The notes under the pieces were generated by a model, which was not told where the DNA came from, ran no database searches, and saw only the letters and a list, made by a program, of their open reading frames with translations. Below are positions 18,385 to 43,912 of a stretch of 64,000 bases of DNA, piece by piece. How positions within the stretch are numbered: position 1 is the stretch's first letter; each line of letters starts with the position of its first letter. The translations under genes and the position numbers were made by a program. Source of the stretch: an uncultured Planctomycetia bacterium (GTDB lineage Bacteria > Omnitrophota > Gorgyraeia > 2-02-FULL-51-18); contig CAZSGP010000001.1 of NCBI GenBank assembly GCA_964606485.1, positions 481,085 through 545,084 of the forward strand, in the 5' to 3' direction.

Positions 18385-19277
18385 ACGAGATCACACGCTA
18401 TCTCGAATATCTCTACAATCGCGGCCACAAAGGTTCGAGTATCAAGACTATGCGTAAAGACCTTGAGGCGTTTGTGAGATTCCTGACGGGAGAGAGGAAG
18501 AAGGCCATCACGACTGCGATGCCGGAGGATATTGAAGCGTATCTTCTCAAAATAAAACCAACCGTGAGTGAGCACACGTATTACCACCGCTTCTCAACCG
18601 TAAGATGTTTCTACCGGTATCTCGCCATGGAAGAAATCATAGCTTTCAATCCTGCCGGGGCTATCCAGGGAATACGAACACCAAGCAGGCTTCCAAAATC
18701 TGTGCCCAGCGAATCGGAGGTTCAGGATTTCCTGAAAAAACCAAAACTTCACACAGTCTACGGAATCAGAGACCGTTCTATCTTTGAGCTTCTTTATTCC
18801 ACAGGACTCCGAAGTCAGGAGCTGCGTGATTTAAAACTCGAAGACCTTGATTTATCCCAGAGGGTTTTGACTGTGCGTGAAGGTAAAGGCGGGAAGGGGA
18901 GGCTTGTTCCATTTGGCAGAAAGGCAAAAGAGGCGGTCGAAGAATACATCAATAAATCGAGGACGATTTTAAATAAGAAATCAGGCACGTATTTATTTCT
19001 GACGGACCAGGGCAACCCCATGAGCGCCTACATTCTCCGGCACAATATGAACCGCTATCGAGATCCCGAGAACCGAACCGCAACCCCGCATTCATTTAGG
19101 CATGCCTGTGCGCTTCATATGCTGCGAGCCGGGGCCGGGATCCGACACCTTCAGCAGATGCTCGGCCACGAGCGGATCACGACAACTACTATTTACACCC
19201 GCCTCAACCCCGAAGACCTGAAGAAGGCCGTCAGAACGTATCATCCCCGCGAACTCCCGCCCAAAGACGAAAAATAG
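18381..19277 (+). CDS. Tyrosine recombinase (XerC/D-like), third of the trio (RitC-like)
   Basis: Catalytic residues LYSTGLRSQE, EGKGGKGR, HSFRHACALH, LGHER and TTTIYTRL. Confidence 0.8.
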   Translation: MNEITRYLEYLYNRGHKGSSIKTMRKDLEAFVRFLTGERKKAITTAMPEDIEAYLLKIKPTVSEHTYYHRFSTVRCFYRYLAMEEIIAFNPAGAIQGIRTPSRLPKSVPSESEVQDFLKKPKLHTVYGIRDRSIFELLYSTGLRSQELRDLKLEDLDLSQRVLTVREGKGGKGRLVPFGRKAKEAVEEYINKSRTILNKKSGTYLFLTDQGNPMSAYILRHNMNRYRDPENRTATPHSFRHACALHMLRAGAGIRHLQQMLGHERITTTTIYTRLNPEDLKKAVRTYHPRELPPKDEK

Positions 19278-19325
19278 TTCTTCGGCAATCAGTTACTCCG
19301 TAATCCCTCTGCGCAATACCATTTT

Positions 19326-22300: not shown

Positions 22301-22535
22301 CATGCGGAGAGAAACAACATTTACTTCGTCCATCGTTAATTTTTTTAATCCCTCGGTAGCGGAATGGAACCGGACGGTTAGTGCGTTTGTGGCGGATGTT
22401 GTTGCTAATAGCCGTGATACCGCTTCGATTACCAGGTTCTTGAGGAATCCATCTCCGGATTTAGTGGGAGTTCAGGTTGTCGAAGAATTAGATAGGTGGG
22501 TAGTTTACTTGCCAGGATACACTGACCATGAATAA
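19326..22535 (+). CDS. 5'-truncated paralog (1069 aa, GTG start) of the C-terminal ~900 aa of the giant protein at 28731..41801. It spans the distal half of the C39-like domain, the glycine-zipper membrane region and the lipase-like alpha/beta-hydrolase. It may be an orphan module or a pseudogene.
   Basis: VVITSITETSITYTDMGIGRDKQNESVTVSKDGFLKAWSGNVSLE aligns to YVIITNVTENSVTYIDPSIGKDKENESLTVTKEGFLKLWQGNVTLE. The paralogs are roughly 50% identical throughout, and the in-frame homology (RNPSAQYHF vs NPSS..VHY) extends back to nt 19281. The GYSGG...GTRD...GATHFDY triad is conserved. Confidence 0.6.
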   Translation: MVITSITETSITYTDMGIGRDKQNESVTVSKDGFLKAWSGNVSLESQKIQLLPSAQNKILSAEDAKKVRGAFWGSLLAMVGSVLSWIPIPVLQQIGWGLTAISIAVSAIEGDFLTAITSAVSVFLPGLRQLFGNVFDGIGESLGSIGQTFQNAGATIYNSVTGFINSAINFLPGVGPVLQSAAAWQGASSVGALVVNTALKMGVEFSVTRGLESLGVGSQIAGFFGSLTANAITAGLKPESSIQANGQTQVMVSHAQQVQNALQQTITISQIGNLGMQLGLAPELTQLASLSVGAIQGAQILNPGGPLEYAFSEIAPNLVTTLGQYGLSELSNAIGLPPIASQMVGNIGGAALSAGLGFSHAGMDIVNVINNETIRNAVSLGMTFGMEALQIAPSASQFIFDLMDTIKVGGQSIGSRLVGAVVAGYHSAVDFLAQPFRYLPFAAQELKNGIIFSLNSFQNFLESIPTIFTPQTREAIYQNETSLSSAQIERDGDVYRFQSGSSIVEYDVVRDVLTETTLSQQLEIKGFGWNSQGEPYYQNLSYRSVLENGLVLEENFDGQALTDWSYLMEGRTLVKVNVGHEGPFYDIDDFVESGSIEMAAPITFQTTEASPTHEIESYDAPFRFVLSVSNGSITSTTAEIIREHVNDSRLDEDLYVLVNGIANENIRLEGSPQYLQNLETDLVSRSQGQIQHQDIIKASTFFNFATYQFLSGLGNYTTLGAGSVYRAVLELITGEIQNSLSLMTKDIVLWLAEVSNPARQSLLVGDIRRAVEGFFSVNPATRQRDIIGVGYSGGFVPLTEAVARVPYSANPLAGYNTKSLVAIGAALVRPDQIFNDILLKLLQAADYLQNPGQVALGVLETTLNDLDQVLLTTPGVGVGITQAVIRRVIAFVAQGSPEQAYQEYQQRLNAISGALSNLFPSAFQGFALDDLTGSSTQTIVNLYGTRDILANFAVNGHAIGGYRDDIAGFTQTNRDHQLVNIEIVGATHFDYMRRETTFTSSIVNFFNPSVAEWNRTVSAFVADVVANSRDTASITRFLRNPSPDLVGVQVVEELDRWVVYLPGYTDHE

Positions 22536-23280
22536 TATTAGAAAAATAACTCTCATTTTTGCAATAATTTCGATTGTCTGTAGTGCGTGGTTAGTACCGC
22601 ATCCAGCATTCGCTAAATCAGAAAAATATGATTTACGTTTGCTTGCCGAAAAAAATTCTCTTGAAAAGCAAGGGAGAAATTACGAATATCAGTCCGAATT
22701 TGATAGAGCAGCTCAAAAATATCAAGAAGCGGTTGAGTTGGACAATAGAATCTACGGCTCAAAAAACGGAAGAGCTCTCGCTTTTTTAGCGGAGGTTTTT
22801 CAAAAGCAAAATAGGTATGAAGATGCTCTTGAGCTAGTATTAGGTTTGGTTGTTGCGCACCCAAAACAAGAGAACTATTTGGATTGGAAGAGTGAATTAG
22901 ACGCTTTGATCAAATACAAGAATACGGGTTCTCAAGAACCTGTATCTGAATACCTAAAAGGTTATTCAAAGAAATACGAATCTAAGCTACCCCCAAATAC
23001 CTACACCTTTGGGAGCATTTTCTATGTTAATCGCATTCTGATGCTCTACGACACCATCGGCGATTACGATGCAGGAATTACATTTATCGATGAAGTTTTG
23101 GCTTATTTCAGAACCGGCAAAGCAGGAGACCCTAATCCTGGCCGTGTGGATGCGGAATACATAAAAATCAGAGAAGCCTTCGAGCTAGACAAAAAAGAAG
23201 GCAAAAAAGGTTCCATGAAGGAAGGAAAGCCCGGTCGGGCTACGCTAGCCCTCATCCAATCCGATTATTTTCCCTGGTGA
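22528..23280 (+). CDS. Membrane-anchored/secreted helical-repeat (TPR/Sel1-like?) protein. It occupies the same position as 41807..42268.
   Basis: N-terminal hydrophobic segment ITLIFAIISIVCSAWLV; Tyr/Leu/Glu-rich helical composition. Both this gene and 41807..42268 lie immediately after the hydrolase-domain end of a giant-gene copy. Confidence 0.35.
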   Translation: MNNIRKITLIFAIISIVCSAWLVPHPAFAKSEKYDLRLLAEKNSLEKQGRNYEYQSEFDRAAQKYQEAVELDNRIYGSKNGRALAFLAEVFQKQNRYEDALELVLGLVVAHPKQENYLDWKSELDALIKYKNTGSQEPVSEYLKGYSKKYESKLPPNTYTFGSIFYVNRILMLYDTIGDYDAGITFIDEVLAYFRTGKAGDPNPGRVDAEYIKIREAFELDKKEGKKGSMKEGKPGRATLALIQSDYFPW

Positions 23281-28730: not shown

Positions 28731-31700
28731 ATGAAAACTAAATCTGTCTTTTTCAAATCTATCTGCTGGACGCTAATTCTTAGCTTCTCGTATTCGCAGT
28801 TTTGTTATGCCTTAACTCCGAGAGAGCTTTTAGATCAGGCCAAAGCTTCCTTTGGACTTATGGGAGATGATCATCATCAGGGAGGAGGATCGAACCCGGT
28901 AGATTTGCAACAAAGCCAAGTCCAAGCTCAAAGTGCCGTAGATCAGCAAAATAATCTACAAGACCTTCAAAATCTAAACTTTTCTCTAACCACTCAAAAC
29001 GGCGACACCTTAAATTACGTTAATAACACGCTTTCACAAATCACACGTCCGGACGGAACCACTTTAAATAATATTAGTCAGGACGCAATGACCGGCAATA
29101 TCACAGGTGCCAACTTAAGATTAAATGATGGAACAATTCAAATCCTCCAAAATGGAAATATTTTAGGAAGTCAAACCCCTGATGGCACCCAAGTTTTCTA
29201 TGACCTTCAGACTGGCAAAGTTCAAAGAACCGTTTCTTCAAGTGGTGAGGAAACAACGTACACATACATCAACAGCGAAACGATTCTTGAAAGTGCCCAC
29301 TTTCAAACTGCCTACGACGCCAATGATAAAATTAAGCATATTTTAGATAAACAAACGCACAAAGAGAGTTTTTTTAATAACGGCATTCTCCAAAGAATTG
29401 AAGAAGTTGATCATTCCCAGTATTTATTCGGTCATGAGACTACGGGGACAGATATCCGCGTAAGCCTGGAAGCTTTTATCGACTCCATCGGCAACCGATT
29501 TGATTTTACTGGAGACGACGTCTCCCGAGTGACGCTCGTGGATGGGACCGAGCTTCAAAATACGGTTTGGAACTCTCAAGACCAAACGCTCCGAGACTTT
29601 TCATTTACAGAAGCCTCAGGAAATACCCGCACCGTTTTAAATAATCAAACCTCACAGATCGATCTTTCGAATAATGGTGGAAGCATCACGGACATTACTT
29701 GGAATCCCCAAACACATGCTCTAGAAAATTACCACTTTACAAATCCAGCGGGTGACGACTTCACGGTCGTAAATGGATTGGCTAGCCAAATCCACTTAGC
29801 CAGTAATCAGGGTTCTATCTCTAATAGCATTCTAGATCCCAGTACAGGCCTTCTTCGGGACTATGTGTTCACCGACCCAGCAGGGAACGTGTTTACCGCT
29901 CTAAATAACCAAGCCACTCAAATTGATCTTTATAATCATCAGGGCGAGATTTCAAATATCACTTGGAACCCCACCAACCATACTCTCGAAGACTACGTCT
30001 TCACCGATCCAAACGGGAATGAATTCACAGTCGCCCAAACCCAAGTCTCTCAAATTTTTCTTCCAAGTGGCCAAGGCCGACTGACGAACATCACCTGGAA
30101 TTCTTTAGATCAAACCTTAAAAAACTACACCTTTACCGATTTTGATGGAAATGTCTTTACAGTCGTTGATAATCAAACCACACGCATCGTTCTTTCTGGG
30201 AATAGGGGAGAGCTCGCCGGTATTGAGTGGGATGCCGTCACACATTCTCTAAAAAACTACACCCACACGGATTCCGCTGGAAATATCTTCACCGTTCAAA
30301 ATAATCAAACTATCCAAATTGATCTTGCAAACAGCGCAGGACGCATTACGAATATCGTTTGGAATCCCCAAACGCTTGCACTGGAAAGCTACCACTTTAC
30401 AAATTCCTCAGGCGACGAGTTTGCGGTTAATAACGGTCAAACCACCGAGATTCTTTTAGCGAACAACGATGGACGCCTTACCAATATTATATGGGACTCA
30501 CAAACGTACGCTCTTTCAAACTACATGCTGACCGATCTAGCGGGAAATCAATTTACCGTTGCCCAAAACCAAACCACTCAAATAGCGCTTTCTAATAATG
30601 CCGGAGTGATCACAAATATTCTCTGGGATAACGCCACTCATCTGCTAAAGGATTATGTTTTCACAGACTCCACCGGAAACGTCTCTACCGTTCAAAACAA
30701 TCAAACCGTTCAAATCAATATTCCAACCCAGGGCAACTTAACCAACATTGTTTGGAGTTCAACAACTCAAAGTCTCGCAGATTTTATTTTTACAGATCTT
30801 TCTGGAAATGCATTTACAGTTCAAAATAATCAGACCACACATATAGCCCTTTCCAATTCAAGAGGCACACTCACTAATACAGGATGGGACAGTGCAACGG
30901 GCGTTCTAAAGGATTATTTATTTACAAATCCGTCCGGAGATATTTTTACAGTAATCAACGACCAGACCTCAGACGTTCTTTTGGCAAACAATGCCGGTCG
31001 CCTTACGAATATCATCTTCGACCCTCAATCCCATCTCACCAAAGACTATGTGCTCACTGATTCGGCAGGGAATATCTTTACCGTCGTCAATAACCAAGCC
31101 ACCGAAATCGATCTTGCCCATAACGCCGGACGCATTACCGGAATCATTTGGAATTCACAAAATACAATCGACCAAGCCTTGCTAACCGATTCCCAGAATA
31201 GACAGATCCAATATCAGGGTGGAGTTGCTACAAGAATTACTCTGCCAAGCGGCGAGGTTATCTCCAACATCACATGGAATTCTAACGGCACGGTGCATGA
31301 AGCAGCGCTTGCCGACTCGCAGAACAACCAATATTTCTTCCGAGACAACGTAATTATAAAAGTCCAAGACTCGAATGGTGTTTTATTTGAAAATATTCTT
31401 TGGGGCCAAGACCAAAAGATTAAAGACGCCTCTGTGACGTTTCCAGACGGCCGAACCACTCTCTATCAAGATAAGAAGCTTATCCGGTTAACCGATGCCC
31501 AGGGAGTCATCACAAACTTCACTTATACTCCCGATAGAATTCTTGCGAGTTCCAATGGAATAAACTCCGAATATTTATTAGACGGCACCCTCGTTAAAAC
31601 AACCGATGCTCAAGGCAATCAAACTTTATACTTCGCTCAAGGCCCCCAAAAAGGCCTAAAAGAAAAAGACGTGACAGTTGCAGGGGACACCTTTATCTAC

Positions 31701-34700
31701 GAATATTCTCAAAACAACACTCTCATCCAGAGAAGACAAGTTCTAAGATCTGAGCAGACTGTCACCACCATCGAAGGCCAGACCACACTTCAAGCTAAAA
31801 ATAATCCTTTCTTCGGATTTGAGGCCTCATTCCAAAACCCTGAACTCGATTCCCAAGAAGTTCGTCTGATTACAAACGGTTCTTATCCTTTGGAAATTAA
31901 GCTCAAACCCGGTCAAGACGCGGCTTTCTCCTTTAATAGAGGTGCTTTTCAATCCCTGGGAGTTCGAATCGAACAAGGCTTTGCTTACAAAGTCGAGATC
32001 CAGATTTCAAAGACGGGTATCCAAATCTTTATCTACAAATCCACTGATCCTAGGCCTTCCAATCCCGCTAGAACTATTCAGCGAAGCAATTGGAATACCC
32101 GATTTGAAATTATTTCCACTAACGCCCAAGTGCGGCTCGACGCTCGCTCCGCCGGAACTTATCGCACGGATACCACGACCCAGGACCGGCAAAACGCTTA
32201 TCGCTCTGGAAGCCCCGTTGAGCAACTGACGTTTAGACTCACCCCCCAAAACTCTTACAGCCGTCCAAGTATTCAGCTGACTGCCGAACAGCAGAACACA
32301 TCGCGTCAAAAGCGTACGTTTTATTTGGATTATCAAAATAACCAGTGGAGAATCACGGCTTTCGGTGGAGGAATCAGTTTCCAGAGCTTCGCTATCAATC
32401 AAACCCTTCAAAGTAACGTGGATTACGCGGCAGAACTCCGCTTCGAAAATAACCAGCTTAAGTTTTATGTGTATCCCAAAGGCCAACAAAGACCTCAAAG
32501 CCCACTCGCGACGCTGAATGCGCTCACAAATGCCTCAGCGCGTTTTAATTCTGACTTCAACAACGCCCAAGGGCAAGCTCAAGTGCTTTATAATCTCACG
32601 AGCCCCACTCTTTCAAGTGCCAGAGCTTCGTCGCTTCCTCAGAATATGGATCTTTTGCAAAACTCAAATCTCCTTTCACAAACGCTACCTTCGGCGCCGA
32701 TGAGTTTGTCTTATCAGAATCCCGGATTTTCTTTTGCAGAAAGCCAGCTTGCGCTCCAAAGACCTGATTTTCGGATGACTCAAGTCTCGTTCGCGTTCAC
32801 CGAGCCGAATATTCATGAGACCGAGTTTAGTCCATCCCTGGCAGGGCCGACTTTCGTATTTAATGAACCGGTATTTTCTTTTTCAAGGCCTAATCTTAAT
32901 TTAACCCAAACCAACGTCTCATCGATGGTCAATCCATCGATTTCACTGATTCAGAATGATCTAAATTTAATAACGGACCAAACCATTTCAATTGTACGGC
33001 CTCTCAAATTTGATTTGGATAATGCCATCGGTTTTAGCTCAACGACCTATAACCTTCATGGTGGGCTCGAAGAAGTTTTAAAAGCTGATAGTTCGCGGTA
33101 TGTGTTTGAAGACGGTGTTTTGTCCCAGGCATTTAACGCGCAAGGCCAAGCCACTAACTTTAGTTTTCAGGAGTCCGGCCTCTCAAATGTTGTGGGCGCT
33201 ACGATTTCTCAGAACCAAGTCCAATCTCATTACAGCGCAGAAGGGGAATTAGAGTCTGTTGTTGTAGGGGATATGACAGTTCATTACGGCTCTAATCAAT
33301 CGATTGATTATTTGGAAAAATCAGACGGCACCGAAATCCACGACATCACGTTTGACGCAAACGGACAAATCCAAAATGCCAGCGTCTATCTGCCGGATGG
33401 GAGAATCAAGTTTTATGAGAACGGGCATCTTGTTAGAAGCCAGGAAGCCGACCATTCCCAGCTTTTCTTTGTGAATGACCAAGCTGTTCAAATGATCACC
33501 GCTCAGAATCTCACGTATGATTTTAATTACACTCCCGGACACATCGAAGCAGTTCTCAATACGGCGAATATCCCAATCCCGGACGCTCTAACGCCGGTGA
33601 GAATGCAGCATGACTCAAACTTTAATCTCCAACAGATAGTTCGCCAAAACAATGAAATTATTAACTTCACCAATAACCAGGTTCAAAGCGTCCAAACTCC
33701 CAGCCAGTCCCCGCAAACGATAGTTCAGCTAGCAGACGGTTATAAAGTTTTGCAAGACAACACCGAAACTTTCTATGATTCAAACAATCAAATCCAAAAA
33801 GTGCTGATTCACACTACAGCCAGTAACTCCCACGAATTAGAAGTGAGCTATCAGTACGGCAAGATCCGTCAGATTAAAAAAGACAATACCCTCACTTTCA
33901 CGTACTCCTATGAATTTACTTCAGAGAATAAGGAGCGGACGGTTATTCACGACCTTGAAGAAAACTCCACAAAGACCTATGAAAACGAGCTCCTTCTGAC
34001 TAGTTTTGATAACGACACGTCCGTACTCTCGAATTATTCTTATGATGCCAACAAGAAAGTTTCTCGGGTTGTGGTTTCGCGTCTGGGGCGAACGCTTCAC
34101 ACCTACAACTATACTTATTCAAATGATCAAACCCTCGTTACCGATGAAGAGGGAATTCTGAGAACCTACGACTCCAACAACAAGCTCATTTTCCTTGATA
34201 AAGAAAATAAGCGCTTTACCTACACCTATCACACCGATGCTACGACTCACGAAGAAATCATCGAAGAAAAACTGATTCGTCAAACTTTAGAGGGCGGAGC
34301 GGTCGTTGATTACGATGTGGACGGACAAATCCAAAAAATCCAAAACACTGACGGAACGTTTATTGACCACGTGGTTTTAGGTGGCCAGCGAAACATCCAA
34401 AAAGCCACGATTCATCTTTTAGATGGAACGAGTAAAGTCTTTAGCGGAACCCAAATTCTTGAAGAAATCACCCCGCAAAACACTCACTTTTATTTTGACG
34501 AGGGCAGAATTACAAGGGTGGTAGGCTCCCAAGGGGATGAATTTGATTATATTTATGACCAGGACTCCGGCGGAAACGTTGTGCGAGTCAGATCAGATAT
34601 TGGACAAGCTTACTTAGAGTACGACATTAACGGAGATCTTCAAGGATTTCGTCCGAAAGATAGTAATCAGTTTTACCATCTCACAAAAACGTTCGATGCG

Positions 34701-37700
34701 AGCGGCAGGCCGACCTATTTTTTAAATGCGTATGGAGCGAGTTTTCAGTTTCAAGAAAGTGGTCTACAATTATCTATCAATCAGTTTAGTTTTCTTCAGA
34801 GTCAGCCAGATAACCGCACTACAATTTTTACCTTACCCCAAATTGACCATGCCGTGCCATTTTTTGGAACCGGAGTTGATGGAGATGCCAGAGTTACAGC
34901 AGCTACCTATCTAACTAGAGATATGAATTATAACTCTCTGACTATTGATTCAGGCGCAATTTTATATCCAAATGGACATAAAATTTTTGTGAATGGCGAT
35001 TTAATTAATAATGGGTCAATTTCCGTGGATGGGCAAGGTGGGCAGGGCGGCGGTGGTGGAGCGCCTCGACCCACTGGTTCGCCGTCAGGCGGTCAAAGCG
35101 GCCAATCTCAAACGGACTCATTTGGAGGGATTGGTGGAAATGGGGGAGCTGGCGGAGATACGCGATACACTTCGCCGCGTGGCGCAAGCTCATTTTATCC
35201 GGGATACCCTGGTGGTTCCGGCGGCGCGATCAGCGGATTTGCCAGCACCACTTTACCCACAGATATTTTGGCGGGAAATCCTGTAAATATATCGGCAGGT
35301 GCTGGCGGCGGTGGCGGAGGCTCATCGGCCATGGTTTACGGAGGAAGTGGGGGTCCCGGGGGAGGTGCTCTGTTTATTTTCGCTAAAAATATAAAAAATG
35401 AAAATGGGACAATTTCAGCCAATGGGCAAAATGGGGTGGATGGTGGTTGGGGACCTGGTATTGGAGACGGAGGTTCTGGCGGTGGCGGCGGTGGCGGCGG
35501 GGGGACAATTTATCTTGTGTATCAAGCCATTGAAAATGGAAATATTCAAACTAATCCGGGCTTAGGTGGTTCTGGTGGCGGCGGTTCTAGTCAAGGTGGA
35601 GCTGGAGCCAGCGGTCTTCCAGGTTCGGTGGTGAAATTTAGCCCTTTAAATTTAAATATTTCATTTGATAGCTCAGAACTTCGATTGCCATATTTTGACA
35701 AAATGAATTTTGACAAGGGTTTTAGTGACGCAACTAATCAGATTTACACCGGAACATATGCCTTTGGCCAAATTTCTCAGATTCAGGGTATTTATAATTC
35801 CCAGGGCGTAAATATTGATGTTCAAAAAAATCTCATTCATCAAATCACCGAATCTTCTGGCCAAAGAAAAGACTACAGCTATCAAAGAGACATAAACGGC
35901 GCTCTCACCGGAATCACCGTCACTCAAAATAATACCCAGATGCATTATTCGCCAGATGGCGTGTTGAATGGGGTTCGGTTTTTGTCGATGCCTAACACCA
36001 TTGATCAGGCTAAAGATTTTGTAGATGCAAGCTCTGGAAATTTTACAATCGCTTCAACCGGAAATGTTGCCTTAGATGTCGACCAGCAAGGTTTCTTTGG
36101 AAATGCCTCAGCGCTCTTCGATGGAGCTTCGAGCTATCTTTCCGTAAATCCAAATCCCGCTTTTAATTTTGGAACGGGCGACTTTACGATGGAGACGCGT
36201 TTGTTTTTACAAAGTCTCCCCGCCAATAATTCCGAAGCAGTTATTTTTGATAATGGGGGAGTCCAAGGTGTAAGACTGGGAATCTCGAACACGAATGGGC
36301 TCTATCAAATCCATTTAGTCATTGCCAATACAAACTACAGTCTCAATTTTGTGCCACAGGCAAACTCCTGGCAGCATTTGGCGCTTGTCCGCAATAGCGG
36401 AGTGATTAAAATTTTTGTGGATGGCTACCAGGTGGGTTCAGATATTCAAAATGCTTCCAACATCTCAAATCTCTCTCAAGGTTTGCGCATCGGAAATTCT
36501 TTTTCCGGCAACCAATTCTTTAAAGGAAGTCTTGATGAATTAAGAATTTCAAAAGGAGTGGTGCGCTACGCTCAAAACTTTACAAGTAATACGGAGAGCC
36601 ACCGCTCAGATTCTTTTACCAGTCTCTTACTTCATTTTGACGGAACGGATTACTCAAACTTTTCAATTCGTAAAGATGGGGCTAATTTTATTTTCGAAGG
36701 AGCTAGCGGACAAACATTTTTGATTCCCGCCTCCGTGGGAATGACAGATTCTGTGACAATCAATCCTTCCTTCATCACACAAAGCCGTGACGCGGTCCAA
36801 AGAGTAAATTTTTCAATCAATCCTTTAGAACAAAACCCGTCTCAACGATTCGGAGACGGGCACGACGGAAGCGCGACGCTTTTATCCAACACCACGCTCA
36901 CTCGTGACATGTACTACGACAACCTCACCATAAATCCGGGAGCCACTTTAAATCCCAACGGGTATAAAATATTTGTAAAAGGAATGCTGACGAATAACGG
37001 CACGATCTCCGTTCAAGGCGGAAATGGTTCTAACGGCCAAGGTGCTTATAAACCTGGTGACGGAGACACAAATCCAGGAAGCGGTGGCGGAGCAGGTCAG
37101 CCCGTAACAACCCAAATAAAATCACTCGGCAGTTCTGTTGCTGGCGGTTCGGGGGGATCGGGTGGTCATGGAGGCGGCGGCGGAGCGGGACAAAACGGAC
37201 AGTCTGTAGCCCAATCTCTCGGAGGTCCCGGCGGCGGAAATGGCGGCTCTGTCCAAAATTATTCGATACAGGCTTTAAATCCTGACGTATTTTCTAACCA
37301 AACAATATTGACCCTTCAAGGCGGAGCTTCCGGTCAAGGCGGCGCAGGGGGCGGCGGCCAAAATTACACAGGATCCGGCGGCGGTGGAGGCGGTGGAGCG
37401 GCAGGCGGCGGAGTAATCGCAATCTACGCTCAACAAATTTTAAATCAAAATGGAATCATCACTGCAAACGGTGGAAACGGCGGAACAGGCGGCGGTGGTC
37501 AAGGTGAAGAATATTATAATGGCCGAGGCGATGGTGGTTCGGGCGGTTCCGGCGGCGGCGGTGGAACGATATTCCTAGTTTACGATCAAATCCAAGATGG
37601 AACAATTACGTCGAGCGGCGGTCAGGGTGGAAATGGTGTGGGTGGCTCTCGTGGTGCCACTGGAGCAAATGGTCAACCGGGCCAGACCGGAACTATTCTT

Positions 37701-40700
37701 CGTTATGATACTGCATCACTTAATCCAATCACGTTAGCTTTAGAGCTTCCGTTTAAAGCAATCAACACAGCACTCTCTCGAGCAAACGAAACGCTTCAAG
37801 GTTGGATGAGTTCTGTGACGCAAGCAAACTTAAGTTCACAGGACGTGGTGTCTCAAGAGTATTCTGCGAGCGGTATTCTTGAAGATCAGGTTCACGCGGA
37901 TGGAACCGTTACGATTTTCGAGAATAATAAGCCGTCCATGGTTCTTGATAAGGAAGGTCTTGTTCTTATCCAGTACACCTACGACAGCGAAGGTCATCCT
38001 ACAAGAGTTTATTTAAAGAACGCTCGTAATGCGTTGCCGGATGAAATCGCCAAAGCGCGTCAAAAAATCGAAGACCAACGCGCCAATGATTTAAGAAATC
38101 TCGCCATTCAAAAAAATCTCTCTTACCAGTCCATTCAGACCCAAGCCGCCGCCCAGCGCGCGCAACTCGAATCTCAACTCTCTCAAGTAGAAGATCAGTT
38201 GAGTCATATTTCAGGCATCGAAGTAAAAGGTAAAGCCCAGAGAGTTCAAAAAGCCAATGCCCTAGAGCAATTGGGAGATGCCGTTAGTCAAATCAACCAA
38301 GCGCTCACCGATCTCTCACTCCAAGAGGGAAGTGCCTACGCCAATCTCGACTCCCAAGTTTTATTTTTGTCTAACAAAATTGAAGCCGACACGCAAACGG
38401 CTATCACGAATCTTCGAATTCAAGAAGATCAACTCAAAATCGAAATTCTAAGACAAGAAGTCTCGCCAATTGTTTACGACAACTACCGTAGAATCCTAGG
38501 CCGCGACCCCTCGTCGAGTGAATACAACTTCTGGATTGGTCAAATTGACTATGCGACGGGTGAGTCGCTCCAAGAAGTAAAAACCCTTCAAGGAATTAAT
38601 CTCACCACCGCTCTCAACGCTCATCTTTTAGCCTTGCCGGAGCTTGCCCAAAGACAAGCGTACGTAAATTCCATTAAACAGTCGGTCACGAGTGAGATTG
38701 ATCAGTACCTTAATCTATCAGCCGAAGATAAACTTTTATTTTTACAATCGCTGGGTCTTTCAGCGTCGGATGCAATCAATCTTACAAATTCTGACGCTCA
38801 AAAAGTTTTGTCATGGCTTAATACCCGAAGCCTTCACTTTGGACAGAGCGCTTTTTTAAGTCTCGAAGCGCTACTCGATCAGAACCACATCGCCTTCCAG
38901 CGTGAAGACATAGCCCGTAAAGCCATTCTGATTGATGTTCTTTGCGGGATTATTTCGCCTCTCGATGACGGAGATCTCGTCATCTCGCTTTTTGCGCTCA
39001 ATAAAGTGGCGGGTCTTTATGGCCTCAGCCTCTCCGGAGCTAATTTAAACTGGAACGATCTCCAGTCGATCTATAATTCCAATCCCTCCTCCAAAATTAT
39101 TGCTCATATTAATTCCGTTCACTACGTCATCATCACAAACGTCACAGAAAATTCCGTGACTTACATCGACCCCTCCATCGGCAAAGATAAAGAAAACGAA
39201 TCTCTTACCGTTACAAAGGAGGGATTCTTAAAGCTCTGGCAGGGGAATGTAACGCTTGAAACACAAACTCTAAATACTCTTCCAAACGCTCAAAGCAAAG
39301 TTTTATCTGCCGAAGCAACGCAAGGTATAAGAGGCGCATTCTGGGGAAGTCTTCTAAACCTTATTGGATTCGTAGTGTGGATTATAAATCCCGAGTTAGG
39401 GTTCCTCCTTAACATGATCCGTCTCGCCGCTCTCGGCGCTTCCATCGCTGAAGGAGATTGGCTCTCGGGCCTTTCATCCATCGTCTCTCTAAACTTCGGA
39501 GATCTCGGGAACGCTTTTGGCACTATATTTAAGGGAGCCTCCACCGGAGTCACCCAAACGATCAGCTCTTTGGGTCAAGCCTTAAACGGAGTCGGGCAGT
39601 TCTTTGGAACCATCTTTCAATCTGTCACCGGCTTCTTTGGAAATATCTCCCAAGGACTCAACAGCTTCCTTCAAGGCTCACTTGGAATCTCCTCAGGCAT
39701 CGGGCAAAGAATTGTCGAGACCGCCGTTGGGGTCGGAATTAACTACGGAGTCTCGAAAGGGCTAACGGCTATCGGAGTGGATGAGCAGGTTTCAGGATTC
39801 TTAGGGTCGCTTACGGCGGGAGCGATTATCGGTGGAATGAAAGATGAGACTATAGCTGGCGGACATGTGGCCGTAACCCATGCGCAAAATATTCAAGCTT
39901 CAGTCCAGCAAGTTCTAACGATCAGTAATGTTGGACAACTGGGCGCAGAACTTCACCTAGATCCAACGCTAACGAGCATCGTCGGCTTATCTCTTGGCGC
40001 GATTCAAGGGCACATCATCACTAATCCCGGAAGTAATCTGGAGTACGCTTTCTCAGAGATAAGGCCGAATCTATATTCGAGTTTAGCGCAGTACGGAGTC
40101 TCAGAACTCGCTCAAAGTTTTGGAGTGGACTCCAATCTTGCGCCCATATTCACACTGCCGGTTGCAAGCGGCCTCAATGCGTTAACAACTGGCCAAGACG
40201 TGATCCAAGCTGTAAACCAAGGTCTCAATCAAGGTATTGTTCGTTACGGCTTAAACTTTGCTGGAAACTCTAACCCAATTTTTGGATCGCTTCTTTCGCC
40301 GGACATTCAAAACTCGATAGAACAATCCGTTGGTCAGCAAGGATTGTTCCAGGGAATATTTAGTATTGTCGGTCGAACCACTCGAGGTCTTCTCCAAGGA
40401 GTGTCCGCAATTGGTCAATCTATCCAAAGTTTTGGATCTCTCGTTCAACAAAGAGGTCTTGCCGGAGCTTTGTCTCAAACAATGAGTTCATTTTTTGGAA
40501 GATCCTCAATCGAACAGATCGTAAATCAGGGTGGAATTGCTCAAAGTCTTCAGAACGCTCCAAGACAACAAGTCACGCTTAATAACGGTCAAACCGCTAC
40601 AGAAGTAGAGCTGTCTCAAGACGCCTCAATCTACTTGGACTCTCAAGGAGATTTGCTGGGAACGAGAGACCAGGATCTTGTGCAAATAGGGGATTTTGGT

Positions 40701-41801
40701 TATGACACTAATGCCGACATCTTTCTATCCGATGGAATGGTTTATTCTGATCTACCAGATCAATATCAGCTCTCCATGCAAGTTGATGGTTACCAGCCCA
40801 TTCATATTGAAGTATCAGATAATCAAAACCAACCCGTTCTTCAAGTAACACCAAAAGATGGTCAGCAGAATATTCAGATTCAATCCCCCACTCAAACATC
40901 ACCCAGCTTTTTAAACTCAATCCTATCTTTGGTGCCAATGGGACTTTCGTTCTTGATGAGTGAGGGGGTGGCTGAGGCGGCGGGCATCTCTGTAAATACA
41001 GCATCTGCAAATCCTATCGGACAACTTATAGATGTTGTTCTTTTGAATGGTGTTCGTCTTACAGAATTCGCTAGAGAAGGAGAGGCTCCGCGCTATTTTC
41101 AATCGGGAAATGCCTTCAGAAACGAACTCAATCGTCTCCACGTTAGCGATAATTCAATAAAAACAATTTCTCTTTTTGAGCAGTTCGGTACGGATTTATA
41201 CCAATGGTTACAGAATCAGAAGCTTGCGCAAGAAGTTACGAATGAATTGGTCCAAATTCGCAATACGCAACTCAACCACCCATTTGTCCCGCTAGCGTAC
41301 AGTGGTGGTGGGCGGCCACTTCTCAATGCTCTTGCAAATGAAACTCATAATGGATTTGGTGTGCAGACGGCGATTTTAGTGGGTTCTCCAATGACCGAAG
41401 CCGAGACCCTGATAGAGTCACCAACCCTAAGTACAATTGTCAATATTTATGGGAGCAATGACCTGTTTCTTGTGGCTACGCCTCAAGATGGAGTACCATC
41501 AATCTCCAAGCATTTTTCCAGCGATGACCATTACGTCCAAACAATCAATATCGAGCTTCAGGGTATTGGGCATACGGATTATTTTTACAGTAGCAATGAA
41601 ACGCCTTCCGCGCTTAAAATGAAGGCCTGTAATTTTATAGCAAGACTTACTCAAGCTGCTCTTGACGAGCAGACACTGGGGGATTTTTTGAATCTATTAG
41701 GTGCGCCTTATTCAGCGGAAACCTTTGACGATGAGCACTATTTAAGCGAGGTCAAAAACTACGTGATTAATTTAAATAACTTGCCTGATCTAAATTTGTA
41801 A
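28731..41801 (+). CDS. Giant secreted multidomain protein (4,356 aa). Parts in order: signal peptide, conserved N-domain, ~15 tandem 44-aa repeats, YD/Rhs-like repeats, two Gly-rich modules, LamG-like domain, coiled coil, DUF4214-like segment, C39-like peptidase domain, glycine-zipper TM region, C-terminal lipase-like alpha/beta-hydrolase.
   Basis: A single uninterrupted ORF. Signal peptide MKTKSVFFKSICWTLILSFSYSQFCYA. LamG pattern FDGASSYLSV...LRIGNSF...FKGSLDELRIS at nt ~36060-36570. C39-like pattern HYVIITNV..YIDPS....LTVTKEGFLKLWQGNV at nt ~38810-39260. Hydrolase triad AYSGGG / GSNDLF / GIGHTDYF at nt ~41290-41585. Confidence 0.8.
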   Translation: MKTKSVFFKSICWTLILSFSYSQFCYALTPRELLDQAKASFGLMGDDHHQGGGSNPVDLQQSQVQAQSAVDQQNNLQDLQNLNFSLTTQNGDTLNYVNNTLSQITRPDGTTLNNISQDAMTGNITGANLRLNDGTIQILQNGNILGSQTPDGTQVFYDLQTGKVQRTVSSSGEETTYTYINSETILESAHFQTAYDANDKIKHILDKQTHKESFFNNGILQRIEEVDHSQYLFGHETTGTDIRVSLEAFIDSIGNRFDFTGDDVSRVTLVDGTELQNTVWNSQDQTLRDFSFTEASGNTRTVLNNQTSQIDLSNNGGSITDITWNPQTHALENYHFTNPAGDDFTVVNGLASQIHLASNQGSISNSILDPSTGLLRDYVFTDPAGNVFTALNNQATQIDLYNHQGEISNITWNPTNHTLEDYVFTDPNGNEFTVAQTQVSQIFLPSGQGRLTNITWNSLDQTLKNYTFTDFDGNVFTVVDNQTTRIVLSGNRGELAGIEWDAVTHSLKNYTHTDSAGNIFTVQNNQTIQIDLANSAGRITNIVWNPQTLALESYHFTNSSGDEFAVNNGQTTEILLANNDGRLTNIIWDSQTYALSNYMLTDLAGNQFTVAQNQTTQIALSNNAGVITNILWDNATHLLKDYVFTDSTGNVSTVQNNQTVQINIPTQGNLTNIVWSSTTQSLADFIFTDLSGNAFTVQNNQTTHIALSNSRGTLTNTGWDSATGVLKDYLFTNPSGDIFTVINDQTSDVLLANNAGRLTNIIFDPQSHLTKDYVLTDSAGNIFTVVNNQATEIDLAHNAGRITGIIWNSQNTIDQALLTDSQNRQIQYQGGVATRITLPSGEVISNITWNSNGTVHEAALADSQNNQYFFRDNVIIKVQDSNGVLFENILWGQDQKIKDASVTFPDGRTTLYQDKKLIRLTDAQGVITNFTYTPDRILASSNGINSEYLLDGTLVKTTDAQGNQTLYFAQGPQKGLKEKDVTVAGDTFIYEYSQNNTLIQRRQVLRSEQTVTTIEGQTTLQAKNNPFFGFEASFQNPELDSQEVRLITNGSYPLEIKLKPGQDAAFSFNRGAFQSLGVRIEQGFAYKVEIQISKTGIQIFIYKSTDPRPSNPARTIQRSNWNTRFEIISTNAQVRLDARSAGTYRTDTTTQDRQNAYRSGSPVEQLTFRLTPQNSYSRPSIQLTAEQQNTSRQKRTFYLDYQNNQWRITAFGGGISFQSFAINQTLQSNVDYAAELRFENNQLKFYVYPKGQQRPQSPLATLNALTNASARFNSDFNNAQGQAQVLYNLTSPTLSSARASSLPQNMDLLQNSNLLSQTLPSAPMSLSYQNPGFSFAESQLALQRPDFRMTQVSFAFTEPNIHETEFSPSLAGPTFVFNEPVFSFSRPNLNLTQTNVSSMVNPSISLIQNDLNLITDQTISIVRPLKFDLDNAIGFSSTTYNLHGGLEEVLKADSSRYVFEDGVLSQAFNAQGQATNFSFQESGLSNVVGATISQNQVQSHYSAEGELESVVVGDMTVHYGSNQSIDYLEKSDGTEIHDITFDANGQIQNASVYLPDGRIKFYENGHLVRSQEADHSQLFFVNDQAVQMITAQNLTYDFNYTPGHIEAVLNTANIPIPDALTPVRMQHDSNFNLQQIVRQNNEIINFTNNQVQSVQTPSQSPQTIVQLADGYKVLQDNTETFYDSNNQIQKVLIHTTASNSHELEVSYQYGKIRQIKKDNTLTFTYSYEFTSENKERTVIHDLEENSTKTYENELLLTSFDNDTSVLSNYSYDANKKVSRVVVSRLGRTLHTYNYTYSNDQTLVTDEEGILRTYDSNNKLIFLDKENKRFTYTYHTDATTHEEIIEEKLIRQTLEGGAVVDYDVDGQIQKIQNTDGTFIDHVVLGGQRNIQKATIHLLDGTSKVFSGTQILEEITPQNTHFYFDEGRITRVVGSQGDEFDYIYDQDSGGNVVRVRSDIGQAYLEYDINGDLQGFRPKDSNQFYHLTKTFDASGRPTYFLNAYGASFQFQESGLQLSINQFSFLQSQPDNRTTIFTLPQIDHAVPFFGTGVDGDARVTAATYLTRDMNYNSLTIDSGAILYPNGHKIFVNGDLINNGSISVDGQGGQGGGGGAPRPTGSPSGGQSGQSQTDSFGGIGGNGGAGGDTRYTSPRGASSFYPGYPGGSGGAISGFASTTLPTDILAGNPVNISAGAGGGGGGSSAMVYGGSGGPGGGALFIFAKNIKNENGTISANGQNGVDGGWGPGIGDGGSGGGGGGGGGTIYLVYQAIENGNIQTNPGLGGSGGGGSSQGGAGASGLPGSVVKFSPLNLNISFDSSELRLPYFDKMNFDKGFSDATNQIYTGTYAFGQISQIQGIYNSQGVNIDVQKNLIHQITESSGQRKDYSYQRDINGALTGITVTQNNTQMHYSPDGVLNGVRFLSMPNTIDQAKDFVDASSGNFTIASTGNVALDVDQQGFFGNASALFDGASSYLSVNPNPAFNFGTGDFTMETRLFLQSLPANNSEAVIFDNGGVQGVRLGISNTNGLYQIHLVIANTNYSLNFVPQANSWQHLALVRNSGVIKIFVDGYQVGSDIQNASNISNLSQGLRIGNSFSGNQFFKGSLDELRISKGVVRYAQNFTSNTESHRSDSFTSLLLHFDGTDYSNFSIRKDGANFIFEGASGQTFLIPASVGMTDSVTINPSFITQSRDAVQRVNFSINPLEQNPSQRFGDGHDGSATLLSNTTLTRDMYYDNLTINPGATLNPNGYKIFVKGMLTNNGTISVQGGNGSNGQGAYKPGDGDTNPGSGGGAGQPVTTQIKSLGSSVAGGSGGSGGHGGGGGAGQNGQSVAQSLGGPGGGNGGSVQNYSIQALNPDVFSNQTILTLQGGASGQGGAGGGGQNYTGSGGGGGGGAAGGGVIAIYAQQILNQNGIITANGGNGGTGGGGQGEEYYNGRGDGGSGGSGGGGGTIFLVYDQIQDGTITSSGGQGGNGVGGSRGATGANGQPGQTGTILRYDTASLNPITLALELPFKAINTALSRANETLQGWMSSVTQANLSSQDVVSQEYSASGILEDQVHADGTVTIFENNKPSMVLDKEGLVLIQYTYDSEGHPTRVYLKNARNALPDEIAKARQKIEDQRANDLRNLAIQKNLSYQSIQTQAAAQRAQLESQLSQVEDQLSHISGIEVKGKAQRVQKANALEQLGDAVSQINQALTDLSLQEGSAYANLDSQVLFLSNKIEADTQTAITNLRIQEDQLKIEILRQEVSPIVYDNYRRILGRDPSSSEYNFWIGQIDYATGESLQEVKTLQGINLTTALNAHLLALPELAQRQAYVNSIKQSVTSEIDQYLNLSAEDKLLFLQSLGLSASDAINLTNSDAQKVLSWLNTRSLHFGQSAFLSLEALLDQNHIAFQREDIARKAILIDVLCGIISPLDDGDLVISLFALNKVAGLYGLSLSGANLNWNDLQSIYNSNPSSKIIAHINSVHYVIITNVTENSVTYIDPSIGKDKENESLTVTKEGFLKLWQGNVTLETQTLNTLPNAQSKVLSAEATQGIRGAFWGSLLNLIGFVVWIINPELGFLLNMIRLAALGASIAEGDWLSGLSSIVSLNFGDLGNAFGTIFKGASTGVTQTISSLGQALNGVGQFFGTIFQSVTGFFGNISQGLNSFLQGSLGISSGIGQRIVETAVGVGINYGVSKGLTAIGVDEQVSGFLGSLTAGAIIGGMKDETIAGGHVAVTHAQNIQASVQQVLTISNVGQLGAELHLDPTLTSIVGLSLGAIQGHIITNPGSNLEYAFSEIRPNLYSSLAQYGVSELAQSFGVDSNLAPIFTLPVASGLNALTTGQDVIQAVNQGLNQGIVRYGLNFAGNSNPIFGSLLSPDIQNSIEQSVGQQGLFQGIFSIVGRTTRGLLQGVSAIGQSIQSFGSLVQQRGLAGALSQTMSSFFGRSSIEQIVNQGGIAQSLQNAPRQQVTLNNGQTATEVELSQDASIYLDSQGDLLGTRDQDLVQIGDFGYDTNADIFLSDGMVYSDLPDQYQLSMQVDGYQPIHIEVSDNQNQPVLQVTPKDGQQNIQIQSPTQTSPSFLNSILSLVPMGLSFLMSEGVAEAAGISVNTASANPIGQLIDVVLLNGVRLTEFAREGEAPRYFQSGNAFRNELNRLHVSDNSIKTISLFEQFGTDLYQWLQNQKLAQEVTNELVQIRNTQLNHPFVPLAYSGGGRPLLNALANETHNGFGVQTAILVGSPMTEAETLIESPTLSTIVNIYGSNDLFLVATPQDGVPSISKHFSSDDHYVQTINIELQGIGHTDYFYSSNETPSALKMKACNFIARLTQAALDEQTLGDFLNLLGAPYSAETFDDEHYLSEVKNYVINLNNLPDLNL
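29521..31530 (+). repeat. In-frame tandem array of ~15 units with a 132-nt (44-aa) period
   Basis: Consensus unit (Y/F)(V/T)FTDxxGNxFTVxNNQTTQIxLxNxxGxITNIxWNxxTxxLxDY repeated from aa ~265 to ~935 of the giant protein. The units have diverged at the nucleotide level. Confidence 0.7.
34912..35640 (+). repeat. Gly-rich low-complexity module 1, preceded by a conserved TRDMNYNSLTIDSGAILYPNGHKIFVNGDLINNGSISV leader
   Basis: Long poly-Gly/Ser/Gln stretches, including a (GGC/GGT)n run near nt 35474-35506. Module 2 begins with a near-identical leader. Confidence 0.6.
36898..37715 (+). repeat. Gly-rich low-complexity module 2, an internal duplicate of module 1 (leader TRDMYYDNLTINPGATLNPNGYKIFVKGMLTNNGTISV)
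   Basis: The leader motif and the following TIFLVYDQIQDGTI segment match TIYLVYQAIENGNI in module 1. A (GGC/GGT)n run lies near nt 37376-37413. Confidence 0.6.
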
Positions 41802-41806
41802 TCGCC

Positions 41807-42268
41807 ATGAAAAAATTATTAGTAATATTTATCATAACGTTGGTAGCAATCGGTGTCAGTTGGAAGATTTTCTCTCGTTTGAACAAGAATGCGGCGAAAA
41901 AGCCAGTGGAAACAGTTTTTATTGCGCCCAAAGAATATACGGAATCGTTTGAAAAGTCTACCGCATCGGCCAGGTTATTCTATGAAAAGTACCGGCGAGC
42001 GCTAGACCAGCTTAAACATGAAAACTACCAAGAAGCAATTCAGTCTTTTAATGAGTGTGTTCCTGAGGCGGGCATCGGCATTGAAAAAGGAATGGTTTAT
42101 AACAGGCTTGTGCAAATTTACAAAGCGCTTGATGACCCTCAAAACGAGTTGAAGTACACAGAACTTACGATTAAATTTTCAGCCAATACTGTTCTAAACG
42201 AGGAACTTAGTCGCCGTGCCGCTGAACTCCGCCAACTTCTCTCTGCAAAAGAAGCGCAGAAGAAATAA
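41807..42268 (+). CDS. Membrane-anchored helical (TPR-like?) protein (153 aa), positional counterpart of 22528..23280
   Basis: N-terminal TM segment LLVIFIITLVAIGVSW; helical Glu/Lys/Tyr-rich sequence. It starts 6 nt after the giant gene's stop codon. Confidence 0.35.
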   Translation: MKKLLVIFIITLVAIGVSWKIFSRLNKNAAKKPVETVFIAPKEYTESFEKSTASARLFYEKYRRALDQLKHENYQEAIQSFNECVPEAGIGIEKGMVYNRLVQIYKALDDPQNELKYTELTIKFSANTVLNEELSRRAAELRQLLSAKEAQKK

Positions 42269-43699: not shown

Positions 43700-43912
43700 T
43701 TGGAAAAAAGTAAAGATAGCGTCTTTACCGTCCAAGAACTGGCGAAATACCTTCGCATGAAGCCGCTTACGATTTATAAGCACGCCTCCGAAGGAAATTT
43801 GCCGGGTTTTAAAATTGGGTCGCACTGGCGCTTCAAAAAACAAACGATTGATCGATGGATAAGCGATCAAGAAACGTGTAGCAGTAAGAAAAAAACTTTA
43901 ATAAATGTGTAG
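43700..43912 (+). CDS. Excisionase/AlpA-family HTH DNA-binding protein, paralog of 25006..25200
   Basis: FTVQELAKYLRMKPLTIYKHASEGNLPGFKIGSHWRFKKQTI. The gene has its own promoter and its own terminator. Confidence 0.6.
   Translation: MEKSKDSVFTVQELAKYLRMKPLTIYKHASEGNLPGFKIGSHWRFKKQTIDRWISDQETCSSKKKTLINV

Follow-up and report, generated by a model that had tools for sequence, protein, structure and literature searches.

A C39-like domain with serine at the nucleophile position as a candidate self-cleaving release module of a giant Omnitrophota protein

What would a C39-like peptidase domain do in the interior of a giant protein when serine stands in place of its defining cysteine? The question is raised by a 64,000-nucleotide (nt) stretch of DNA from an uncultured bacterium of the Omnitrophota (GenBank assembly GCA_964606485.1, contig CAZSGP010000001.1, positions 481,085 to 545,084 of the forward strand), referred to here as the window. 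Positions 38810-41650 are no separate gene but the C-terminal fifth of a single open reading frame (ORF; 28731..41801, plus strand) encoding a protein of 4,356 amino acids (aa), which is identical to database protein P0016 and has close homologues named as Omnitrophica/Omnitrophota metagenome bins. Its N terminus is signal-peptide-like and is followed by tandem repeats of ~44 aa (132-nt period), a LamG domain (aa 2464-2610, Pfam), two Gly-rich blocks, a coiled coil, and the C-terminal module. The C39-family peptidase-like domain is internal (aa 3352-3510; 38784..39260, on the same strand as all parts of this protein), and the 4,356 residues include no ATP-binding cassette (ABC) transmembrane or ATPase domain. 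We consider it about an even chance that this region is a self-cleaving release module of a polymorphic-toxin-like giant protein, in which cleavage in cis would free a membrane-active, lipase-bearing tail.

By fold and ancestry the domain belongs to the C39 family, yet it lacks the Cys that defines that family. Its match to Pfam PF03412 (31.2 bits against a cutoff of 22) aligned only profile positions 46-127, from the His block onward, and a single-sequence search of the PDB with the domain gave only a marginal match (E 1.2). The family profile matched PCAT1 (E = 8e-9), LahT (2e-6), and ComA (4e-4) in the PDB. HMMER family profiles searched against the PDB never aligned the N-terminal Cys block, but hhalign did so when the family profile was compared with seven canonical PCAT peptidase domains taken from plasmids (Prob 98.5-98.8%, E ~1e-15, 126-129 columns). 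An AlphaFold2 (AF2) model spanning aa 3352-3546, built from 32 sequences, had a predicted local distance difference test score (pLDDT) of 92 and a predicted template modeling score (pTM) of 0.88. Its top Foldseek matches in the PDB were LahT, PCAT1, ComA, and the 9L5U papain-like toxin, with 6mpz, 7n87, and 5xe8 at template modeling (TM) scores of 0.64-0.72; 9l5u was among the best matches by sequence as well as by structure. Since the top structural matches are double-glycine proteases, the model also lends support to a nucleophile position at S3373.

Relatives of the domain are numerous and occur nearly always in proteins of 2,000 to 7,000 residues. A word-indexed homologue search with the 221-aa domain returned no matches, and an exhaustive profile search of representatives returned 620 clusters at E ≤ 1e-3, of which 176 were at E ≤ 1e-30. 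The family alignment used below comprises 180 domain copies from 156 retrieved sequences, with a median identity to the window domain of 39% (range, 27-74%), and its column counts omit copies without a residue at the position concerned. In one relative, P0001 (aa ~60-300), the C39-like domain is interrupted by a LamG domain (PF13385) that separates its α-helical half from the His block, so that loop can accommodate a large insertion.

The original prediction had placed Ser at the Cys position of a C39-type domain and had described the distal His block as kept, and the profile alignment bears out both statements. In hhalign against the seven PCAT domains, the Cys of 'DCG' falls opposite S3373 and not elsewhere, and H3464 and D3480 are matched by the catalytic His and the Asp, respectively; a profile restricted to Ser-type members again paired S3373 with Cys, at low per-column confidence. 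The motifs on which the prediction had relied are all present where it had reported them: the Ser block FGQSAFLSLEALL (aa 3370-3382; nt 38838-38876), HYVIITNV (aa 3464; nt 39120), YIDPS (aa 3478), LTVTKEGFLKLWQGNV (aa 3492-3507), and the hydrolase motifs AYSGG (aa 4189), GSND (aa 4241), and GHTDYF (aa 4280). The nucleophile position lies in the block H3369-F-G-Q-S3373-A (38835..38852), with an AGC codon for S3373 at 38847-38849. H3464 (39120..39122) is aligned to 'AHFVVI' of PCAT1, and D3480 (39168..39170), the third member of the triad, is aligned to 'ADPG' of the same protein. In the AF2 model, S3373 caps the N terminus of helix 21-33 and a β-strand begins with H3464, the same placement of Ser/Cys on the helix and His on the strand as in LahT (PMC6363468). 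Two other nucleophiles were considered and rejected: S3419 is invariant but aligns in hhalign with a structural Ser of the canonical 'GTS' motif, and C3405 is not conserved, being Thr, Ser, or Ala in relatives.

Conservation across the family speaks to whether such a site is active or dead. The S3373 column is Ser in 138 of 155 copies, Cys in 16, and Val in 1 (Ser or Cys in 154/155), and the following Ala3374 is present in 153/155. His is found at the equivalent of H3464 in 160 of 161 copies, and position 3480 holds Asp in 86 and Glu in 74 of 163 (an acid in 160/163). Ser-type copies have His at 3369 (136/137) and Gly at 3371 (133/137), here called the HFG element; the 16 Cys-type copies never have His at 3369 and always read Asn-Cys. 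At the six loci for which DNA was available, the Ser codon at this position is AGC in two and TCC or TCG in four, and thus Ser has been kept across two codon classes. The two serine codon classes lie two mutations apart, and Cys (TGY) bridges them in one step; Cys is the alternative residue seen in this column. Because the triad is conserved well beyond the domain as a whole, because the HFG element is present, and because both Ser codon classes are used, the site looks rebuilt rather than abandoned, and the HFG element of the Ser-type copies in itself suggests an active site that is not dead. Of the two possibilities raised by the original prediction, this pattern favors a Ser-nucleophile variant over a noncatalytic docking domain, and from it we infer that the Ser form may be catalytically active.

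The likely substrate is supplied by the same chain, in the form of a motif and a hydrophobic segment that were absent from the original prediction. About 30 residues past the domain lies a double-glycine-leader-like motif, L3525-S-A-E-A-T-Q-G-I-R-G3535-A3536 (39303..39338; in short form, L-S-x-x-E-x-x-x-I-R-G-A), recognized by its conservation in the family and with the predicted scissile bond after A3536. The family consensus reads K-x-L-(S/T)-x-x-(E/Q)-(A/T)-(Q/K/M)-x-(I/V)-(R/K)-G-(A/S), with Gly at -2 in 150/150 copies, Ala/Ser/Gly at -1, Ile/Val at -4, Glu/Gln at -8, and Leu/Ile/Met at -12, and it agrees with the classical double-glycine leader at -12, -11, -8, -4, -2, and -1. A strict regular expression for the motif matched 111 times in 440,000 residues of family proteins, and 104 of the 111 matches lie 40-140 aa past the domain His. 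In the AF2 model, aa 3512-3531 have a pLDDT of 97-98, with a predicted helix at -10..-5 and a β-bridge at -3/-2, a modeled conformation that mirrors leader binding in LahT (PMC6363468). Self-cleavage in cis by a C39 domain has a demonstrated precedent in the toxin StbD-CT (bioRxiv 10.64898/2026.05.07.723447), described further below. Directly abutting A3536 is FWGSLLNLIGFVVWII, the start of the hydrophobic, Gly-containing segment FWGSLLNLIGFVVWIINPELGFLLNMI (39339..39419), which would form the new N terminus after cleavage. The only windows with a Kyte-Doolittle value of >1.5 C-terminal to the motif fall at aa 3533-3563. Among 121 family members, ~80% have a hydrophobic segment at this place, and only its upstream flank is positively charged. 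A C-terminal sorting signal of the sortase, exosortase, or GlyGly-CTERM type was considered for the motif and segment and was rejected because ~820 residues lie past the motif.

Cys-type relatives carry the motif as well, with all eight Cys-type first copies in multidomain relatives having ..(R/K/T)-G-A at the same spacing. Two or three Cys-type domain copies each are found in P0048, P0136, P0142, P0144, P0146, P0149, and P0151. The first copies ('DHY') have the ..GA motif after the domain; the later copies read 'DHAVV', lack the GA motif, continue into 'ERAPP' or Pro-rich linkers, and may form a distinct subtype.

Beyond the motif, the family proteins combine a conserved scaffold with an exchangeable end, a C-terminal polymorphism that is likewise missing from the original prediction. 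The length past the motif is tightly distributed (median, 870 aa). The first 520 aa form one BLAST cluster that includes 111/111 members, and the last 260 aa fall into 36 clusters, 28 of them singletons and the largest, with 62 members, including the domain of the window. A conserved scaffold with diverse, unrelated C termini (1 cluster versus 36) is a feature of polymorphic toxin systems. In the window the scaffold corresponds to a Gly/Ser/Gln/Leu-rich, low-charge region (aa 3564-4058; 39420..40904), which is probably membrane-active. A weak and compositionally biased match of this region to PDB entry 9j1k_J, 'FtbJ', was also observed (E 2e-5 over 68 residues). FtbJ is presumably the tape-measure protein of a Listeria tailocin, and the match hints at a likeness to the Gly/hydrophobic repeats of phage tape-measure proteins.

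Each giant gene is followed within a few bases on its 3' side by a small ORF, which differs by C-terminal type and usually encodes a transmembrane helix, a signal peptide, or a lipobox. In the window this is an ORF of 153 aa (41807..42268, plus strand) with an N-terminal transmembrane helix and a weak TPR match, a candidate cognate immunity or accessory protein. A truncated second module in the window, the orphan described below, has a C-terminal domain homologous to that of relative P0018 (30% over 418 aa), and the TPR genes downstream of the two are homologous as well (E 5e-26), a single concordant pair in a small sample; six other C-terminal domains are followed by unrelated ORFs. By analogy, the tail, the variable C terminus, and the adjacent small gene would make up a polymorphic-toxin architecture, with presumed toxicity and immunity.

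These observations bear on a different reading, in which the segment at 3537-3563 is a stop-transfer anchor, the tail and hydrolase stay inside the cell, and the cut at Gly-Ala sheds the ectodomain; we regard this as rather improbable, and the same holds for its companion proposal that the C-terminal domains are housekeeping or export-assisting modules and not effectors. A signal peptide in combination with this segment could indeed act as such an anchor and leave the tail in the cytoplasm of the producer, a point that counts against release of an effector: the protein has a signal-peptide-like N terminus plus a single strongly hydrophobic segment, positive charges are confined to the upstream flank of that segment, and passages of West-Roberts et al. 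(bioRxiv 10.1101/2023.11.21.568195) describe other giant proteins of Omnitrophota in which a C-terminal transmembrane anchor precedes domains of intracellular type (SecA-related). However, a C terminus that is so polymorphic on a conserved scaffold, and is paired with a differing small downstream gene that usually has a signal peptide, lipobox, or transmembrane helices, is less readily explained in this way. A polymorphic C terminus with a covarying small gene is typical of effector/immunity pairs, and a cytoplasmic anchor is hard to reconcile with it.

The exchangeable end in the window is a minimal, lipase-like α/β-hydrolase (aa 4086-4356; 40986..41801), identified by AF2, Foldseek, and family alignment. 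The model (pLDDT 70, pTM 0.77) had its best Foldseek matches to Bacillus LipA structures (E 1e-5, TM 0.62-0.72) and contains the core fold, a Ser elbow, and an acid and a His past the expected strands: the elbow A-Y-S4191-G-G joins strand 103-105 to helix 106-116, with its Ser at model residue 106, and D4244 and H4281 come after strands 150-158 and 184-195, respectively. The triad codons are at 41301-41303 (S4191), 41460-41462 (D4244), and 41571-41573 (H4281). As originally predicted, the Ser/Asp/His triad is kept in both the giant ORF and the orphan, which reads GYSGG, GTRD, and ATHFDY, and in an alignment of 63 family domains the three residues are positionally conserved (Ser 59/59, His 58/58, and Asp 47/58, or 81%). 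The domain had no sequence match in Pfam, NCBIfam, or the PDB, and hence none to a curated lipase family such as Lipase_2; a wider homologue search found only unannotated Omnitrophota fragments. It shares with Bacillus subtilis LipA (A-x-S-x-G; PDB 1i6w) a compact α/β-hydrolase fold, the A-Y-S-G-G elbow, and the Ser-Asp-His order, but the two are only 13-17% identical and the window domain has an additional C-terminal helical and β-hairpin extension. Its likely activity is that of an esterase or (phospho)lipase directed at the envelope of a target.

In our proposal, a giant secreted surface protein resembling a polymorphic toxin has its release-and-delivery end in this region. In this peptidase of the C39 family (clan CA, double-glycine), the nucleophile would have switched from Cys to S3373, with H3464 and D3480 kept and the HFG element gained. 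The domain would act once, in cis, on its own C-terminal leader-like amphipathic helix (aa 3525-3536), and this leader-like extension would sit in the peptidase groove as bacteriocin leaders do in LahT and PCAT1. Cleavage past Gly3535-Ala3536 would part a repeat/adhesin portion of ~3,500 residues from a tail of ~820 residues. The freed tail would have a hydrophobic N terminus and ~500 Gly-rich, low-charge residues that probably insert into a membrane, and it would end in an exchangeable enzyme, here the LipA-like Ser/Asp/His α/β-hydrolase, directed at the target envelope. A cognate protector or partner would be provided by the adjacent gene, which encodes a small membrane or periplasmic protein. 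Cis cleavage at Gly-Ala is predicted from motif and domain, and membrane insertion and lipase activity are likewise predicted properties of the tail.

Apart from the possible anchor, several points weigh against this proposal. There is no conserved counterpart of the canonical oxyanion-hole Gln. The aligned positions are Thr3365 and Arg3366; hhalign places the Gln opposite T3365, followed by a two-residue insertion, position 3366 is Gln in 60 and Arg in 54 of the Ser-type copies, and an invariant His3369 is present instead. Exchange of Cys for Ser usually cripples papain-fold enzymes, the Ser forms often being poor enzymes or having no activity, and the natural Ser variants, Plasmodium SERA5 among them, have a debated status as pseudo-proteases. 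The motif has Ala or Thr at -7, where classical leaders have Leu, and NCBIfam leader hidden Markov models gave no meaningful match to ten motif segments. The modeled placement of Gly-Ala at the Ser/His pair is drawn only from pLDDT values and secondary structure. For the tail, the hydrolase model was built from 6 sequences and is of moderate confidence at its pLDDT of 70, and ten alternative C-terminal domains had no match in Pfam, toxin families included.

The lack of a conserved Gln also favors a pseudo-protease, a somewhat unlikely alternative in which the Ser-type domain only binds its own motif and serves as a clamp or regulated dock beside the membrane segment. The catalytic Cys is gone in ~90% of family members, the motif region is modeled as a stable structural part (pLDDT 97-98), as expected of a permanently bound segment, and passages of West-Roberts et al. 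(bioRxiv 10.1101/2023.11.21.568195) give a precedent for inactive C39-like domains in HlyB-type exporters. The C39-like domain (CLD) of HlyB, from RTX type-1 exporters, shares the C39 fold and has lost the catalytic Cys, but CLDs of this type are fused to ABC exporters, unlike the domain described here, in which Ser, His, and Asp are strongly conserved and no transporter is present. In the HlyB CLD, Tyr occupies the nucleophile position, and the domain is noncatalytic and binds the RTX substrate as part of the ABC exporter. Binding alone would require neither the near-invariance of the triad (Ser/Cys 154/155, His 160/161, acid 160/163) among copies of 27-74% identity nor the HFG element beside the Ser, and it would not account for a Ser retained through a switch of codon class. 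The invariant Gly at -2 and the restriction to Ala/Ser/Gly at -1 are specificity constraints of a bond that is cleaved.

Another alternative is an active peptidase that acts in trans; its substrates would be other giant copies, other double-glycine proteins, or proteins of prey, and the motif would be an autoinhibitory plug. This, too, is rather improbable, although parallels exist among toxins. StbD-CT of Citrobacter rodentium (bioRxiv 10.64898/2026.05.07.723447; PDB 8ssk/8ssm) is a CdiA-like C39 toxin with a redox-gated Cys nucleophile that cleaves its own chain after a Gly-Gly in a linker, at a site lying 25 residues N-terminal to the nucleophile, and forms the C-terminal toxin domain of its protein. 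It cleaves GyrB and ParE, the 9l5u toxin is among the best matches of our domain, passages of PMC3482391 list C39 domains as toxins of polymorphic systems (Tox-PL-C39), and cleavage of other substrates has been raised by West-Roberts et al. (passages of bioRxiv 10.1101/2023.11.21.568195). However, the C39-like domain lies in the conserved part of the giant protein, before the variable C terminus and not at the toxin position, the fixed spacing between domain and motif in nearly all members fits a dedicated cis substrate, and StbD-CT itself self-cleaves in cis. StbD-CT and the 9L5U papain-like toxin/immunity pair resemble the window protein in having a C39 domain within a large polymorphic effector; here, in contrast to StbD-CT, the domain is internal, the nucleophile is Ser, and the motif lies downstream of the domain, beside a hydrophobic segment.

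The release module proposed here combines features of two known groups of proteins. With the C39 peptidases of PCAT/AMS exporters (ComA, PCAT1, LahT, and CvaB) it shares the fold, the His and Asp blocks, and a nucleophile at the N terminus of α1. A substrate-like motif is common to both as well, with Leu in position -12, Glu in -8, Ile in -4, Gly in -2, and a small residue in -1. The module differs from them in having Ser in place of Cys, a new HFG element, a Gln that is not conserved, and a 13-residue insertion in helix α2, and in lying near residue ~3,400 of a giant protein, unfused to an ABC transporter and with its candidate substrate C-terminal to it in the same chain. With polymorphic toxins that have releasing peptidases, including Rhs and CdiA orphan cassettes, as treated by Zhang, Aravind et al. 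2012 (passages of PMC3482391), it shares a signal peptide, long repeats, a processing peptidase, a variable C terminus, an adjacent small gene, and 5'-truncated orphan modules. In contrast to these, the ~500-aa Gly-rich module is without known counterpart, the orphan arose by integration of a mobile element at a His codon, and toxicity is presumed. The releasing peptidases in Figure 2 of PMC3482391 are HINT, ZU5, PrsW, caspase, and MCF1-SHE, and C39 appears there only as a toxin domain.

For Omnitrophota, passages of West-Roberts et al. 2023 (bioRxiv 10.1101/2023.11.21.568195) report C39-like domains in giant proteins and suggest that they cut the giants into pieces, and passages of bioRxiv 10.64898/2026.06.07.730766 report a cluster of 24 Omnitrophota giants sharing a PF03412 architecture. 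The Ser switch, the built-in leader motif, the polymorphic tail, and the integration site were not found described in the retrieved passages of the literature searched. Were the Ser form active, nature would have made a widespread switch of nucleophile from Cys to Ser in C39, accompanied by a compensating HFG element, in a domain family for which the profile search gave at least 620 sequence clusters. Such a switch would offer a system for studying how papain-fold active sites are retooled. Omnitrophota are possibly predatory nanobacteria, and how their giant proteins are processed and deployed is an open question, for which this module offers a precise candidate site (Gly3535-Ala3536), a defined released product, and a rationale in polymorphic effectors. 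A polymorphic effector tail would also tie the giant proteins of Omnitrophota to the biology of polymorphic toxins.

The second copy of the module in the window, the orphan, differs from its original description in several respects. It is a 5'-truncated 3' module of a paralogous giant gene (19302..22535, plus strand, by homology; ORF 19326..22535), followed directly on its 3' side by an ORF of 250 aa with TPR repeats (Pfam) and a signal peptide (22528..23280, plus strand). Its homology to the giant gene starts at nt ~19302 with '..YHFVVITSI', exactly at the codon of the catalytic His, and it still contains the GA motif and the Gly-rich region as well as a lipase-like domain with a long insert (triad codons at 21702-21704 for Ser, 22167-22169 for Asp, and 22290-22292 for His). 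Identity between the two copies, which had been given as ~50%, proved to be about 31% along the whole length; the first ~400 aa are 42% identical and the hydrolases ~25%. The claim that both copies are conserved stands for the hydrolase triad; it does not extend to the C39-like domain, of which the orphan lacks the N-terminal two thirds, Ser block included. A third paralogue of the giant gene begins at 56861 and runs past 62332 (56861..>62332, plus strand). In tblastn it is 41.5% identical to residues 1-432 of the main giant protein, and matches of lesser strength extend to 62332; the window therefore holds at least three copies of this gene family within 64 kb.

What had been taken for a paralogous gene is instead the displaced 3' end of a giant gene at the junction with a mobile element. 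Immediately upstream lie tandem tyrosine integrases (17012..18067 and 18381..19277, plus strand; Pfam) with a small SAM-domain ORF between them, and the stop of the second integrase is 25 nt before the start of the orphan homology. In two unrelated metagenome contigs, L008 and L010, an integrase pair orthologous to this one (63-74% identity) precedes a truncated module that starts at 'HYV(V/I)(I/V)T'. In all three genomes (window, 17012..19330; L008, 7675..10040; L010, 7581..10010) the pair, with the small SAM-domain ORF in its middle, ends 25-160 nt before a truncated module beginning with 'H(Y/F)V(V/I)(I/V)T'. The recurrence of this junction at the His codon in three genomes identifies the orphan as the displaced 3' end of a giant-gene copy, and the coding sequence of the His block, as read from these junctions, is the integration site. 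In L010, CACTATGT is flanked by a perfect 9-bp inverted repeat, CTGTGATTA...TAATCACAG. The integrases of L008 and L010 close siphophage-like prophages; the cargo in the window is a defence island, and the element there includes a DISARM operon along with a primase-like gene and a PIF1 helicase. Partial synteny (HTH_17, ketoacyl-synthase) links the genes past the module in one of the two contigs to those past the intact window gene. The 10 kb to the left of the window contained the rest of the DISARM operon and an integrase and no giant-gene fragment that could represent the 5' half of the gene of the orphan. At the junction, the orphan and the intact gene have no extended DNA identity in common, and a recent homologous-recombination tract is therefore not evident.

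The three orphans stay open for 885-1,069 codons and may therefore still serve as a reservoir. The junction at the His codon is a concrete case of mobile elements targeting the gene of a giant surface protein. A broader scenario, which we think unlikely as it stands, would have a previously undescribed, redox-insensitive Ser/His/Asp C39 domain serve as a single-turnover primer in hundreds of Omnitrophota giants, where it cuts its own double-glycine leader and so unmasks a hydrophobic, fusion-peptide-like segment. This segment would then send an exchangeable enzyme, together with a Gly-rich module that may resemble a tape measure, into the envelope of prey or competitors. The His-block sequence would at the same time be the attachment site for phages and defence islands with the integrase pair, so that 3' effector cassettes are displaced and perhaps swapped.

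Other genes near these loci were also recorded. A complete DISARM class-1-like operon, comprising a methylase, DrmD (SNF2), DrmMI, DrmA, DrmB, and DrmC, occupies 22..7619 of the window and continues to the left of it, at 1652..10001 of L014. Since this operon, with a further integrase at its left end, lies beside the integrase-bounded element, the locus is an island hot spot. The island also contains a gene for a trypsin-like serine protease (9427..10686). In L017 (870..2680), a Trypsin_2 gene and a PGAP1/DUF676-type lipase gene lie directly 5' of another giant gene of the family. A small HTH_17/excisionase-like ORF (43700..43912) is found 3' of the intact giant gene in the window and also 3' of the orphan module in L008, and it may mark the conserved host flank or a remnant of an element.

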